Source of the DNA: Afifellaceae bacterium
GTDB taxonomy: Bacteria > Pseudomonadota > Alphaproteobacteria > Rhizobiales > Afifellaceae
Direction: 5' to 3'
Length of the DNA stretch: 64,000 bases
NCBI GenBank assembly: GCA_028281235.1
Contig: JANQKG010000024.1
Span: 64,569 to 128,568, forward strand
The notes below the pieces were generated by a model that worked only from the letters and a program-made list of their open reading frames with translations, did no database searches and was not told the DNA's origin. Within the stretch, counting starts at the first letter, position 1. Each line of letters starts with the position of its first letter. Position numbers and translations under genes: made by a program. Of this stretch, positions 32,565-54,698 are shown one piece after another.

Positions 32565-32640
<76 letters not shown>

Positions 32641-32750
32641 TTTCTCTCAATAAATTCAGTGTATTGTGCGGCCGGTTGATTTTTGAAGGCGGCCGAATTA
32701 CCCTTACACAATCGTTGCACAATTTCACACTTCAACGGCGGTCGTGGCGC

Positions 32751-33902
32751 ATGGCGGAGAAGCACACGATCCTTGGCGGCAAAATTCACGTCTACAAGCG
32801 GCCAGGCAGCCACGTCTGGCAGTGCTCGACCTACCTTGCCGGCAAGAACCGACGGGTTACGACGAAGGAAGAGAGCCTGAAGCGGGCGAAGGACTTCGCC
32901 GAGGATTGGTATCTAGGTCTCCGAGGCAAACAGAGCCGGGGCGAGGTCGTCGGAGAGAAAACGTTCGCGCAGGCGGCGGAAAAATTCACCGAGGAATACG
33001 AGGTGATGACCGGCGGCGAGCGCAACGCGAAATACGTCCAGGATCACCAAGCCCGACTGAGAAACCACCTCATTCCCTACTTCGGGAGGATGGGGCTGTC
33101 GCAGATCAAGACCGGCACGGTTCAGGAATACCGCATGCACAGACTCGATGGCGAGGACGACAGTCGCCGGCCATCTCGAAGCACGCTCCACCATGAGATC
33201 GTTACGTTGCGCCAGGTTCTGAAAACTGCGGCGCGTCATGGCTGGCTTGAGCATCTGCCAGACATATCGGAACCCTATCGGGCGTCAGCGAAGATCAGTC
33301 ATCGGGCGTGGTTTTCACCCGAGGAATATCGACAGCTCTACGGCGCGACGCGCGAGAACGTGAAGCAGTCCAAAGGCCGGCCGTGGCGATGGGCTGCTGA
33401 ACAGCTCCACGATTATGTGCTGTTCATGGCCAACACGGGCATTCGCCCCGACGAGGCGAATGGGCTTCAATACCGTGATGTTTCCATCGTTGACGACGAT
33501 GCGACCGGCGAGACAATTCTTGAGGTAGAGGTGCGCGGGAAGCGCGGCGTTGGCTTCTGCAAGAGCACGACTGGTGCCGTTCGGCCTTTCCAGCGGCTCA
33601 CGAAGCGAAACAAACCACAACCGAGCGACCTTGTCTTCCCCGCAAACCACAAACGGCAGTTCAACCGCCTACTCGACGAGCTTGGCCTGAAGCTCGATCG
33701 CGACGGCAATCGAAGGACGGCCTACAGCCTAAGGCACACATACATTTGCCTGCGCCTCATGGAGGGCGCGGACATCTATCAGATCGCCAAGAACTGCCGC
33801 ACGAGCGTTGAGATGATCGAGAAATACTACGCCTCCCATATCCGCACCAATCTCGATGCCGCGGCGATCAACGTGCGGCGGAAAGGCAAGAGCGCGGCTT
33901 AG
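32751..33902 (+). CDS. Tyrosine-type site-specific integrase
   Basis: MAEKHTILGGKIHVYKRPGSHVWQ... The catalytic region has ANTGIRPDEA, AYSLRHTYICLRL and VEMIEKYYASH. ORF 32280..33902 reads through the tRNA, so ATG 32751 is used. Confidence 0.9.
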   Translation: MAEKHTILGGKIHVYKRPGSHVWQCSTYLAGKNRRVTTKEESLKRAKDFAEDWYLGLRGKQSRGEVVGEKTFAQAAEKFTEEYEVMTGGERNAKYVQDHQARLRNHLIPYFGRMGLSQIKTGTVQEYRMHRLDGEDDSRRPSRSTLHHEIVTLRQVLKTAARHGWLEHLPDISEPYRASAKISHRAWFSPEEYRQLYGATRENVKQSKGRPWRWAAEQLHDYVLFMANTGIRPDEANGLQYRDVSIVDDDATGETILEVEVRGKRGVGFCKSTTGAVRPFQRLTKRNKPQPSDLVFPANHKRQFNRLLDELGLKLDRDGNRRTAYSLRHTYICLRLMEGADIYQIAKNCRTSVEMIEKYYASHIRTNLDAAAINVRRKGKSAA

Positions 33903-35476: not shown

Positions 35477-37270
35477 ATGAGTTCCAGCTCCTTAAAGAAG
35501 ATTAAGGACCCAATCCACGGATACGTCTACTACTCCGCTCTTGAGGAGGCTTTTATGAGCCACCCCCTCCTCCTGCGGCTGCACCACGTGCGCCAAAACG
35601 GCGGCGCTTTCCTAACATACCCCAGCATGCGGGTTCATCGCTTCGAGCATTCCGTTGGAGCAATGCACATAGCCGGCCACCTTTTCTTGTTCGGCACGCG
35701 CTTTTCGCCGGACGCCGAGCTCCACGATGCGTACAAGTCAATCTTGGCAAAGATTTTTCCAGACCTATCCATCGACGATCTGCGTACCGCCATCCTCAAG
35801 GCTGACAACCAGCAACGCGAGACAGGCCTCTCAAGGCTTCAGACAGATGGCTTGTACCGACTCCATGACCTCATTGATATCGACGACGACGCGATTTTTG
35901 CGGAGTTGCTCTTCTTCCAGGCAGTCCGACTTGCAACGCTAATGCATGATATCGGCCATCCGCCATTCTCACATACGTTTGAGACCGCGTTGAAGCAGCT
36001 GGAAAAAGACCGATACCGAGATCACGAGACAGTTGGAATAGATTTGCTAAACTACTTAAGCCACGATCTAAAAAACTACACAGATGAAGTTATATATTAT
36101 CTTGGTCGCACCGTGATATCAATTGCAAAGGTAATATTTGATGGCGAGCACGAGCTCCATAAATACGTTCAGGGTCTTTCTGACATCGTCTCCAGCGATA
36201 TCGACGCCGACCGCCTCGATTATGTCAGGCGCGATGCATCGGCCGCCGGACTCACCACAAATGCCTATGATCTCGGTCGGCTGTACGATGCTGTAAAATT
36301 GATATCAAACCCCAGCGGAGCTGTTGAATTGCAATGGACCGCCGCTGCACTCAGCACGATAGAAGCTTTCTTTAGCGTCCGCTTTCATCTTTATCGCTGG
36401 GCGCTATGGCATCACCATGTTGTTCGGCAGAATATGGCGTTAATTCTGGTTACGAGGCTTCTTTGGTCGCTGTTGCGCAAGAACAATGAAACTCTTGGCC
36501 CATTACATCTAGACCTCATAGAGCTGGTCCGCATAAGCAGAAACCCCTCAAGGATAGGCGATTACTGGTATTTCACTGACTATTATTTACTTGATAATTA
36601 TGCTAAAATACTCAGCGCGCTAGATAAGGATGAGATGAAGTGGATTGGAAAAGACGAGAACTGGGGTGAACTGGCCGATCTTTATAAATTCTTGCGCACA
36701 TTCTTATATCGAGAAAAGAAGTGGCTTTCACCTTTTTGGAAACGGCCTGACGACTACGTGATTTTCTCTAACCAGGTTATAGAGCAAGAAAGTGACGATA
36801 GTGCTGTACAGTTTAACGATATGCTAGGCAAGGCGTATCAAAGATTGGTCGCCGAAGACGCAAATGAAGCAGAAGGGAGCCCAGAAGCAGCGGCTCATGG
36901 GGACAAATACGATGACTACCTCAGCTTCCGCTTTTGCGAGCGGTTGGAGCATGCAATCAACGCTTCGTTGAAGCCGCATGGCTGTAGGTGCCGAGCGTAT
37001 TATCTCGCGAAATTCAAGCCGGCCCCAACGAAGCTTCAGCTTCTCGGTCGAGACGACGAACCAATGGCGTTGGGCACGCTTTCGCCCTCGGTGGCAGCGT
37101 TGAGCGAGGCTTGGAGAGCGTTGCCGCACCTTTGGCTCTTTTTAGAGTACAAGGCTTTTGGGGACAACGGGGAAACACTAAACCCTGACGTTGTGCGCCA
37201 ACGTGTCAAGCCGGTAGGAGTCTACTCAGTTGTCGCCGAGTCGCTTCGAAACTGCCTACTAAACGGATAG
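35477..37270 (+). CDS. SAMHD1/dGTPase-type HD-domain (d)NTP triphosphohydrolase-like protein with a long C-terminal extension
   Basis: IKDPIHGYVYY...LLRLHHVRQNG...RVHRFEHSVG (His), LMHDIGHPPFSH (HD) and DADRLDYVRRD (Asp), in the order typical of COG1078/SAMHD1-like enzymes. 597 aa; AT-rich. Confidence 0.85.
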   Translation: MSSSSLKKIKDPIHGYVYYSALEEAFMSHPLLLRLHHVRQNGGAFLTYPSMRVHRFEHSVGAMHIAGHLFLFGTRFSPDAELHDAYKSILAKIFPDLSIDDLRTAILKADNQQRETGLSRLQTDGLYRLHDLIDIDDDAIFAELLFFQAVRLATLMHDIGHPPFSHTFETALKQLEKDRYRDHETVGIDLLNYLSHDLKNYTDEVIYYLGRTVISIAKVIFDGEHELHKYVQGLSDIVSSDIDADRLDYVRRDASAAGLTTNAYDLGRLYDAVKLISNPSGAVELQWTAAALSTIEAFFSVRFHLYRWALWHHHVVRQNMALILVTRLLWSLLRKNNETLGPLHLDLIELVRISRNPSRIGDYWYFTDYYLLDNYAKILSALDKDEMKWIGKDENWGELADLYKFLRTFLYREKKWLSPFWKRPDDYVIFSNQVIEQESDDSAVQFNDMLGKAYQRLVAEDANEAEGSPEAAAHGDKYDDYLSFRFCERLEHAINASLKPHGCRCRAYYLAKFKPAPTKLQLLGRDDEPMALGTLSPSVAALSEAWRALPHLWLFLEYKAFGDNGETLNPDVVRQRVKPVGVYSVVAESLRNCLLNG

Positions 37271-37284
37271 GCGAAATCCAAAAC

Positions 37285-38379
37285 ATGATCACTATCGTCG
37301 TCGGCGCACAGTACGGGGGAGAGGGGAAGGGAAAGGTCTCTGCTTTCCTCGCCTCAGCTCAGCGATTTGATATTGCGTGTCGCTGCGGTGGCCCGAATTC
37401 GTCGCACACAGCGGTGCACAAGGGTAGAGAATTCAAACTCAGGATGATGCCGACCGCGGCTATTGTCGACCCATGGGTCTCCGTTGTGTTCGCGGCTGGG
37501 ACTCTTTTGCACGTTCCAACGCTTTTCGACGAAATCCGTTTGATAGGCTTTCGAGGAAACCTTCTTATTTCGCCATATGCCGGCATTATTACCGATGAAA
37601 CTGTTGCTAAACAGCGCTCTGACAATCGGTATGAGGCAATCGGCTCAACGCTGACCGGTACAGGGTATGCTGCTGCAGACAGATGTTTGCGTAAGCTGCC
37701 CCTTGCAAGGGAATTCTCAGAACTGAGTCCTTACTTATTTGACGTCCATGAGTTTTTGTTTGCGTCTATCAAGAACAGTCGAAATATTCTTATTGAAGGT
37801 CACCAGGGTTTCGGTCTCTCGAATTATCATGGCGACTATCCGTATGTTAGCAGCCGCGATTCAACGGCGGCAGCTATGCTTTCTGAGCTAGGCGTCGGAC
37901 CTCTTCAGAAGACCATACAGGTTGTGCTTGTAGCAAAGATTTTCCCGACCCGGAACCACCGCGGTGCACTCGGAGAGGAGCTCACGGAGGAGGAGGCCTC
38001 TGCGATGGGAATCCGTGAATATGGGGGCGGTTCATGGGGAATACCGAATCGCAGGCGACGGGTCGGCATCTTCGACTTCGAGCTCGTTAGGCGTGCAGCG
38101 GCCGCAAACTCGGCGACATGCATCGCACTGACCGGTGCTGACTATCTCGACAAAGCGCTCGCGGGCCAGCAAATCGCGACTCAAAACGAGCATTTGGATC
38201 AGTTCGTTTGTGCTCTTGAGAAGACAATCTCGCCGACACCAGTAAGGTTCGTCTCAACGGGGCGTGACACCTCCCACATGTTTGAACTAAAGCCCGCCAG
38301 CTCGAAGAAGCCAAAGCGGCCCAGACGAGTCAAGCGACCCGAGAATGTCCGTGATCTGTTCGAAGGGGGGCTACACTAG
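37285..38379 (+). CDS. Divergent short adenylosuccinate-synthetase-family (PurA/PurZ-like) protein
   Basis: IVVGAQYGGEGKGK (compare PurA GTQWGDEGKGK), GGPNSSHT (NAGHT), IGSTLTGTGYAAADR (GTTGRGIGPAYEDK), IEGHQGFGLS (EGAQG), GDYPYVSSRDST (GTYPYVTSS), NRRRRVG (GRRRRTGW), STGRDT (STGPDR). 364 aa; starts 14 nt after the HD gene. Confidence 0.8.
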   Translation: MITIVVGAQYGGEGKGKVSAFLASAQRFDIACRCGGPNSSHTAVHKGREFKLRMMPTAAIVDPWVSVVFAAGTLLHVPTLFDEIRLIGFRGNLLISPYAGIITDETVAKQRSDNRYEAIGSTLTGTGYAAADRCLRKLPLAREFSELSPYLFDVHEFLFASIKNSRNILIEGHQGFGLSNYHGDYPYVSSRDSTAAAMLSELGVGPLQKTIQVVLVAKIFPTRNHRGALGEELTEEEASAMGIREYGGGSWGIPNRRRRVGIFDFELVRRAAAANSATCIALTGADYLDKALAGQQIATQNEHLDQFVCALEKTISPTPVRFVSTGRDTSHMFELKPASSKKPKRPRRVKRPENVRDLFEGGLH

Positions 38380-54652: not shown

Positions 54653-54698
54653 ACTGAAAATCCGCGTGTCGGTGGTTCGATTCCGCCCCTGGGCACCA
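54653..54698 (+). repeat. attR core (duplicated 3' tRNA-Phe fragment)
   Basis: 46/46 identity with 32595-32640. The preceding sequence does not complete a tRNA. Confidence 0.9.

Follow-up and report, generated by a model that had tools for sequence, protein, structure and literature searches.

We analyzed 64,000 nucleotides of contig JANQKG010000024.1 from an alphaproteobacterium of the family Afifellaceae; this whole stretch is referred to below as the window. Its forward strand carries a gene (37285..38379) for a 364-residue ligase of the PurA/PurZ superfamily, preceded by a gene (35477..37270) for a 597-residue SAMHD1/EF1143-like HD phosphohydrolase that ends 14 nt upstream of the ligase gene, and both genes reside in a 22-kb integrative island. 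With somewhat better than even confidence, we read the ligase as an active GTP-dependent purine nucleoside monophosphate (NMP) ligase with an altered acceptor and/or nucleophile, coupled to a SAMHD1-type deoxynucleoside triphosphate (dNTP) hydrolase (dNTPase) in a mobile nucleotide-pool module that most likely acts against phages.

The translation of the ligase open reading frame (ORF) begins with MITIVVGAQYGGEGKGK and matches Pfam PF00709 at 2e-47. The protein is clearly a short, archaeal-type PurA homolog: it has the PurA fold and the equivalents of His41, Gln224, Asn38, Thr129 and Arg143, and among solved structures it is closest to the short PurA of Pyrococcus horikoshii (2d7u/5k7x; 2.5e-54), aligned end to end over residues 3-334. 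The AlphaFold 2 (AF2) model, built from 36 homologs, has a predicted local distance difference test (pLDDT) score of 88 and a predicted template modelling (TM) score of 0.87; Foldseek retrieved first 5k7x, the fully ligated P. horikoshii PurA (TM 0.83/0.90), and next the PurZ0 structure 7vf6 (TM 0.80). The P. horikoshii enzyme is the best match in both sequence and structure, belongs to the same length class and likewise lacks the Lys of the TKLD motif, whereas the ligase differs from it at Asp13, Arg131, Ala223, Val273 and Thr300/301. The ligase fails to reach the curated cut-off of any PurA equivalog model; the short archaeal PurA model NF003295 gives 304 bits (cut-off 368) and TIGR00184 gives 194 (cut-off 395). 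The NCBIfam PurZ model NF038379 gives 158 with a cut-off of 300, and the PHROG match is the PurZ family.

Active-site residues were placed by a HMMER alignment to P. horikoshii PurA and by MAFFT alignments to Escherichia coli PurA, the genome's own PurA, P. horikoshii PurA, two phage PurZ proteins and family members. The P-loop reads GGEGKGK (residues 11-17, 37315..37335), and the catalytic base Asp13 is replaced by Gly12. The first-pass annotation, made from the sequence alone, had proposed this replacement, and it holds in three independent alignments, with HMMER and MAFFT concurring at the P-loop; a shifted Asp or Glu that might take over from Asp13 was looked for in the alignments, and none was found at this position. 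Every one of the 115 homologs that have an N-terminus reads GGEGKG, which puts the change of Asp13 to Gly far beyond chance. Because of this invariance, and because the active phage PurZ has Ser at the same position, the change is a family character rather than decay.

A 2026 survey reported Asp13 in 99% of true PurA proteins, Ser in 100% of phage PurZ, and Ser or Gly in four archaeal sequences basal to PurZ (PMC12884076), the only sequences of that kind that we found mentioned. The phage PurZ proteins in our alignment have the P-loops GSEAKG or GSTGKG. PurZ is an active ligase of deoxyguanosine monophosphate (dGMP) and Asp (PMC8342488), and therefore the loss of Asp13 need not mean loss of catalysis. 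In the few cases with a known or inferable substrate, this loss goes with 2-amino-bearing substrates, which is a correlation and not a demonstrated rule.

The other catalytic and ligand residues are largely retained. The NAGHT motif, whose His was stated to survive as NSSHT, indeed aligns in this way (residues 38-42, 37396..37410): His41 corresponds to His41, and both N38 and H41 are invariant in homolog sets A1 and A2. The Arg cluster GRRRR is likewise kept as NRRRR (residues 255-259), with Arg256-259 equivalent to Arg303-306. Rewriting of the loop that binds inosine monophosphate (IMP), the next claim, is correct in that the loop reads GSTLTGTGYAAADR (residues 120-133, 37642..37683) but was overdrawn, since the phosphate ligands survive as T122, the Thr129 equivalent, and as the invariant R136, the Arg143 equivalent just downstream of the loop; the change of Arg131 to Thr is the sole ligand change. 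Gln224 is retained in EGHQG (37795..37809). In all, the P-loop Lys and the equivalents of Asn38, His41, Thr129, Arg143, Gln224, Arg303-306 and Asp333 are kept in the ligase, and most of them are invariant among homologs at 43-62% identity. With the active-site residues invariant, we rejected a decayed pseudo-enzyme as the leading explanation.

The changes of the clade lie in the base/ribose pocket and the aspartate loop. A clade-specific His (H173), conserved in 90% or more of the B1 members, occupies the position of Ala223 in EGHQG. Val273 and Gly274 are replaced by Asn-His in FPTRNH (37942..37959), a signature of clade B, and these residues, N224 and H225, are invariant in homolog set A2. 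In GGGSWGIPNRRRR (38023..38061), which retains Arg303-306, a four-residue insertion takes the place of the aspartate-binding Thr300/Thr301 loop, so that the loop G-A/T-T300-T301-G becomes GGGSWGIP(N/D) in the ligase clade. The TRN signature together with the GGG[S/A/F] insertion was observed in 107 sequences of clade B, in a tree holding 119 of them, and the Ala223His, Asn-His and GGGSWGIP changes are invariant or near-invariant across the clade. These three changes are more informative than those listed by the first-pass annotation, which did not note them. Its list had included the change of the guanine-specificity motif TKLD to TGAD (residues 283-286, 38131..38142). Here Lys331 is indeed lost to Gly284 and Asp333 is kept as Asp286; however, the loss of the Lys says little, because P. 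horikoshii PurA and PurZ0, which read TMLD, also lack it, and for this reason we rejected it as a change of specificity. The kept Asp is the one that reads the guanine base.

Comparison of the retained and changed residues suggests where the ligase departs from PurA. Both the donor site (P-loop Lys, Asp333 and S-T-G) and the site for the NMP phosphate appear intact, whereas the base/ribose pocket and the amino-acid pocket are rebuilt. The ribose loop has the PurA length, Arg303 is kept, and the IRVxGNSG insertion of the PurZ type is absent. The earlier proposal of a different phosphoryl donor or acceptor can therefore be divided. A new donor is argued against by the retained donor-site residues; an altered acceptor nucleotide and/or amine nucleophile is the likelier difference from PurA, given the pocket changes and the presence of a separate purA gene. 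Since the base/ribose and aspartate pockets are rebuilt, a nucleotide other than IMP is probable.

To place the ligase among its relatives, a tree of 76 sequences was built with IQ-TREE under the LG+C20 posterior mean site frequency (PMSF) model, with supports from the Shimodaira-Hasegawa-like approximate likelihood ratio test (SH-aLRT); among them were canonical PurA proteins from bacteria (six) and archaea (three), as well as five phage PurZ/PurZ0 proteins. All proteins without Asp13 form one group (SH-aLRT 99), divided into clades A (99) and B (97), the latter marked by the TRN and GGGS signatures, and the window ligase belongs to subclade B1 of clade B (98). In clade A, phage PurZ and PurZ0 are nested among cellular genes from Geobacter relatives, Acidobacteriota, Nitrospirota, Chloroflexota and archaea of the anaerobic methanotroph (ANME)/Archaeoglobus type. 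The scaffold without Asp13 is much wider than phage PurZ, with at least two large cellular clades, and the placement of PurZ and PurZ0 inside a family of cellular operons bears on the origin of Z-genome biosynthesis.

Carriers of these genes usually have a housekeeping enzyme as well. The window genome has a canonical purA on another contig (C37, 576 bits), the proteobacterial carriers of clade B1 also hold canonical purA, and so do the genomes with clade A genes, archaea included, in the form of a GDEGKG PurA. The ligase gene is patchy, being present in 4 of 81 related genomes, and together with the canonical purA elsewhere and the scores under equivalog cut-offs this led us to reject housekeeping PurA as its identity. 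No member of clade B1 was found in the phage and plasmid collections; the phage-collection matches are PurZ (at most 33% identity) and the plasmid matches are similar to ToyG (at most 36%). A subclade from Patescibacteria, nested in B1, has a standalone ligase with no HD partner. Two Patescibacteria genomes have no PF00709 gene besides that of the ligase. We detected no purB in the Patescibacteria carriers, although these metagenome-assembled genomes may be incomplete; its absence argues against the classical PurA/PurB two-step there.

The HD protein encoded upstream of the ligase has intact RFEHSVG, HDIGHPPFSH and DADRLDYVRRD motifs, i.e., the full SAMHD1 signature with the H...HD...D metal site. 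Besides Pfam HD, its sequence matches are Aq_1910 (2hek), 9mr6, fungal and human SAMHD1, and EF1143. The AF2 model (pLDDT 86.7) has EF1143, BT4208 and SAMHD1 as its best Foldseek matches (3e-13 to 1e-10). By motifs and fold, the protein is a predicted dNTP triphosphohydrolase of the SAMHD1/EF1143 type. The PADLOC dGTPase model matches it weakly (2e-6, 25 bits).

The order HD gene, then ligase gene, is conserved in the window and in L001, L002, L005, L006, L007, L066, L069, L072, L147 and L148. In all, the pairing recurs in some ten independent loci and in roughly twenty contigs from metagenomes, and its carriers include Devosia, Xanthobacteraceae, Methyloligellaceae, Azospirillaceae, Tateyamaria and several metagenome contigs. 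The pairing persists down to 28% identity of the HD proteins, and the two genes have a 4-nt start/stop overlap in several loci. Among the 27 best full-length HD homologs, 20 are on contigs equal in size to one carrying a ligase match. This coupled SAMHD1-like gene and the mobile island around it are the decisive context, which the first-pass annotation left unused. In L148 (6001-8298), the HD partner has an N-terminal adenylate/guanylate-cyclase domain, and the pair is located beside a Bil-type operon (Multi_ubiq, Prok-E2, ThiF, BubE).

In the sister subclade B2, the genes follow one another as NUDIX(-WGR), ligase, HD (~455 residues) and HD-like (~390 residues), as found in L083, L084, L088 (e.g., L088:3991-8540), L092 and L109, and in L016 (7122-8990). 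The B2 operon is the enzymatic trio of phage MazZ/PurZ/DatZ, built from different families, in cellular and metagenomic contigs.

The ligase ends in a basic tail (residues 336-364, 38290..38376), as noted in the first pass, that is disordered in the AF2 model and terminates in RDLFEGGLH. For residues 341-364 the model gives a block-mean pLDDT of 41-60; within them, a short helix is predicted over RDLFE (356-359). The sequence of the tail is not conserved, and its length was counted after the STGxxx motif: all ten measurable HD-linked genes have tails of 20-35 residues, and seven of the eight standalone genes have tails of 6-13. We infer that the tail serves for docking, and the simplest candidate for what it docks to is the HD partner. 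A motif of the xDLF/xDLW type near the C-terminus was found in 11 of 57 tails, mostly in the closest homologs, and DLL variants in a few more; this motif resembles the bacterial sliding-clamp-binding motif QL[SD]LF.

The island is delimited by a perfect 46-bp repeat. The left copy, attL (32595..32640, forward strand), is the 3' half of a tRNA-Phe gene (32565-32640), and the right copy, attR (54653..54698, forward strand), closes the 22-kb island. A tyrosine integrase gene (32700..33902, forward strand) is recognized by weak Pfam matches to Phage_integrase (24.3 bits, cut-off 27.1) and Phage_int_SAM_3. The GC content of the island is 56%, versus 66% and 63% in the flanks. Besides the pair and the integrase, the cargo includes a ParE toxin gene with a putative upstream antitoxin, TraD-like ATPases, a replication-relaxation protein, a primase and a 1263-residue protein. 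Across some ten further B1 loci, the commonest neighbors are recombinases of the serine type (7) and tyrosine integrases (5), and these loci also contain two complete Gabija systems (GajA and GajB, about 1e-147), SIR2, an AAA_13 ATPase and a Bil-type ubiquitin-like operon. A TraD/FtsK-like ATPase is located near the pair in the window, L005, L006, L007 and L066 (36-42% identity) and in L002 (29%), and the replication-relaxation protein is common to the window and L002.

From the retained residues, the gene coupling and this context, we infer an active ligase, its substrate class, a partnership with the HD enzyme and a role against phages, in the following scheme: (i) the ligase would still bind a nucleoside 5'-monophosphate and a guanine-nucleotide donor, (ii) its substrate is probably not IMP, the likeliest candidate being a purine with a 2-substituent, for example (d)GMP, (iii) the nucleophile may be other than aspartate, or aspartate may be bound differently, (iv) the two genes would be co-transcribed, the ligase probably docking to the HD protein via its C-terminal tail, and (v) the pair would form a two-gene cassette of integrative elements and defense islands that remodels the (deoxy)nucleotide pool, with a halt to phage replication as the most likely purpose. 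In one possible role, resembling Clover, the dNTPase would be controlled by a modified nucleotide that the ligase makes; in the other, the ligase would divert an NMP while the HD enzyme destroys triphosphates, following the logic of PurZ and DatZ. The HD and PurA-like pair is most likely an undescribed two-gene nucleotide-pool system, probably directed against phages; neither a paper nor a model for clade B1 or for the pair was found in the literature and PADLOC.

Two known types of anti-phage system resemble the pair. Clover (CloA dNTPase and CloB nucleotidyltransferase) is also a two-gene cassette that combines an HD dNTPase with a nucleotide-utilizing accessory enzyme, and there the accessory enzyme makes a nucleotide that restrains the dNTPase (PMC12265719). 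In our pair, the accessory enzyme has the PurA fold and not that of a Pol-beta nucleotidyltransferase, and the HD protein is SAMHD1/EF1143-like with weak dGTPase matches. Stand-alone dNTP depletion by anti-phage dGTPases of the SAMHD1 type (Tal et al. 2022; bioRxiv 10.1101/2021.04.26.441389) shares the HD catalytic motifs, the fold and a defense-island-like context, but the HD protein described here is obligately paired with a PurA-like ligase and has sub-threshold scores with defense dGTPase models. If the proposed scheme is true, the ligase would represent a new type of accessory enzyme for dNTPase-based immunity, of which Clover is the only regulated example found so far. PurZ showed that a single residue change in the PurA scaffold can open a route to a new DNA base; if active, the ligase should make a purine nucleotide not yet described.

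Several observations weigh against this scheme. With PADLOC v2, the ligase matched no defense model, and no paper linking a PurA-like gene to phage defense was found in the literature. The standalone Patescibacteria genes indicate that the ligase can work without an HD partner. Arg303 and the PurA-length ribose loop suggest a ribonucleotide, which fits a dNTPase partner less neatly. Docking through the tail is proposed from a correlation, and the TraD-like backbone common to several carriers means that the pair could serve the element and not host defense.

A bolder form of the scheme, possible but doubtful in our view, makes the PurA fold a synthase of an immune signal or antimetabolite. Infection, sensed for example as a rise in deoxynucleoside monophosphates or dGTP-derived nucleotides, would trigger GTP activation of the O6 of a guanine-type nucleotide; a non-aspartate amine would then be coupled, and the resulting new N6-modified purine nucleotide would switch the SAMHD1-like dNTPase on or off or poison phage DNA synthesis. 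If so, the HD and PurA-like genes would constitute a new two-gene anti-phage system and define a new class of nucleotide messengers.

Service to the element itself is an unlikely explanation. Here the pair would be a backbone module of integrative or mobilizable elements that tunes nucleotide pools for their own replication, transfer or competition with other elements, consistent with the TraD/FtsK-like ATPase near the pair in six loci (the window, L005, L006, L007, L066 and L002), with the replication-relaxation protein in two of them and with recombinases as the commonest neighbors. However, the pair also occurs in the unrelated contexts L001, L147 and L148, the last beside a transposase and the Bil-type operon; known defense systems cluster around it; and the ligase and its B2 relatives are also found without the TraD-like backbone.

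A cellular pathway of the Z type, which we regard as rather improbable, would convert dGMP and Asp to succino-2-amino-dAMP, with host PurB and kinases continuing to dZTP and the HD enzyme taking the DatZ role of removing dATP, so that the DNA of the island or host would be partly substituted with 2-aminoadenine. With PurZ and PurZ0 (N6-succino-2-amino-2'-deoxyadenylate synthase of Z-genome phages; 6FM1, 7ODX, 7VF6), the ligase shares the short archaeal-type PurA fold, His41, Gln224 and the Arg cluster; Asp13 is replaced in both, by Ser in phage PurZ but by Gly in the ligase, and either residue is reported for archaeal sequences basal to PurZ (PMC12884076); the ligase belongs to the clade that is sister to the one containing PurZ, and its PHROG match is to that family. 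The phage Z-cluster combines removal of one dNTP, by an HD dNTPase, with diversion of dGMP by PurZ (PMC8342488). The HD partner of the ligase parallels DatZ, and the NUDIX, ligase and HD genes of B2, which add a nucleoside triphosphate pyrophosphatase, mirror the phage trio MazZ/PurZ/DatZ (PMC8342488). However, the ligase is only 23-33% identical to PurZ and PurZ0 and is in a separate, well-supported sister clade (SH-aLRT 97-99). Clade B lacks the aspartate-loop residues Val300/Thr301 of PurZ and clade A and has a four-residue insertion there, the ligase reading GGGSWGIP for the Thr301 loop and Asn-His for Val273-Gly. In PurZ, an insertion in the loop after IRV favors deoxyribose (PMC8342488); the ligase has no such insertion, and Arg303 is kept. 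Further, its HD partner is a SAMHD1-like protein of 597 residues and not the small DatZ, the Patescibacteria carriers are without purB, the score with the PurZ model is about half of the cut-off (158 vs 300), no Z-specific polymerase was seen on the island, and the gene is on a bacterial integrative island, not in a phage. On its clade, model score and aspartate-loop features, true PurZ was rejected as the identity of the ligase.

The first-pass annotation had also offered a catalytically altered nucleotide-binding regulator. On this view, the protein would bind GTP and a nucleotide without ligation, as a non-catalytic or GTPase-only sensor that acts on the HD enzyme as an allosteric regulator or as its sensor subunit. 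The loss of the catalytic base, the rebuilt aspartate loop, the tight coupling to the HD gene and a tail that tracks HD linkage are in line with this idea. We nevertheless consider it very unlikely: His41, Gln224, Lys16 and Arg305/306 are invariant across the clade, as are the other catalytic and ligand residues in about 120 homologs; PurZ is active without Asp13 (PMC8342488; PMC12884076); and the standalone members have no partner to regulate. A redundant second adenylosuccinate synthetase, in which another residue takes the role of Asp13, is highly improbable, since about 99% of true PurA proteins have Asp13 (PMC12884076), the ligase is under the cut-offs of every PurA equivalog model, the carriers with full genomes keep canonical purA, the Patescibacteria carriers are without purB, and the gene is island-borne and patchy, which outweighs the PurA-like fold, the mostly PurA-like contacts to IMP and GTP and the two Patescibacteria genomes in which it is the sole PF00709 gene.

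PurA paralogs of the ToyG type, which belong to 7-deazapurine clusters, were considered as another identity. They are PurA paralogs for a purine nucleotide other than IMP and are also found on alphaproteobacterial replicons; however, they keep Asp13 (GDEAKG), TRVG and TVTG and adjoin homologs of purB, queC and queE, none of which is near the ligase gene, and this candidate was rejected. One such cluster is carried by the Rhizobium leguminosarum plasmid pCC283b_4 (L163:4366-10620), where it has generic annotation only. This toyocamycin/sangivamycin-like 7-deazapurine cluster, found on rhizobial plasmids, contains folE, a ToyG-like purA, a purB-like gene, queE, a gene similar to IMP dehydrogenase/GMP reductase, nitrile hydratase genes and queC. 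The ToyG-like paralog on the Rhizobium plasmid, with Asp13 kept, should act on a 2-deamino substrate.

Cellular members of clade A are encoded in a different operon, widespread and conserved, with the order RNase-H-like exonuclease/DUF429 (with or without a kinase domain), GGEGKG ligase, dCTP-deaminase-like protein with a transmembrane tail, and deoxynucleoside kinase. This operon was found in L008-L051, L057 and L089-L146 (e.g., L010:6380-10490 and L031:5913-10690), and its ligases have the PurZ-type IRVxGNSG insertion. It could be the cellular source of PurZ, or it could encode a cellular pathway of the dZ type.

Several single loci extend the range of the family. In L073 (3928-6011), a standalone B1 ligase of the Patescibacteria type is encoded directly 3' of a patatin-like phospholipase; such phospholipases are common defense effectors. 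L058 (1345-2937, reverse strand), of the same order as the window organism, encodes a 530-residue fusion of a P-loop domain similar to nucleotide/nucleoside kinases (AAA_18) with a PurA-like ligase. The micrarchaeal L025 (7968-8999) encodes a GGEGKG protein that retains the PurA residues TRVG and TVTGRPRR and adjoins a DHH/DHHA1 phosphoesterase; it is the only PF00709 gene found in this 1.1-Mb archaeal genome, perhaps for a housekeeping PurA able to function in the absence of Asp13. Finally, in L062 (1-11047; identical to L063 and L085), a B2 ligase (GGEGKGL) is clustered with radical-SAM, PhyH dioxygenase, glycosyltransferase and NUDIX genes and adjoins a CAP12/PCTIR TIR protein, in what looks like a nucleoside natural-product or modification cluster.

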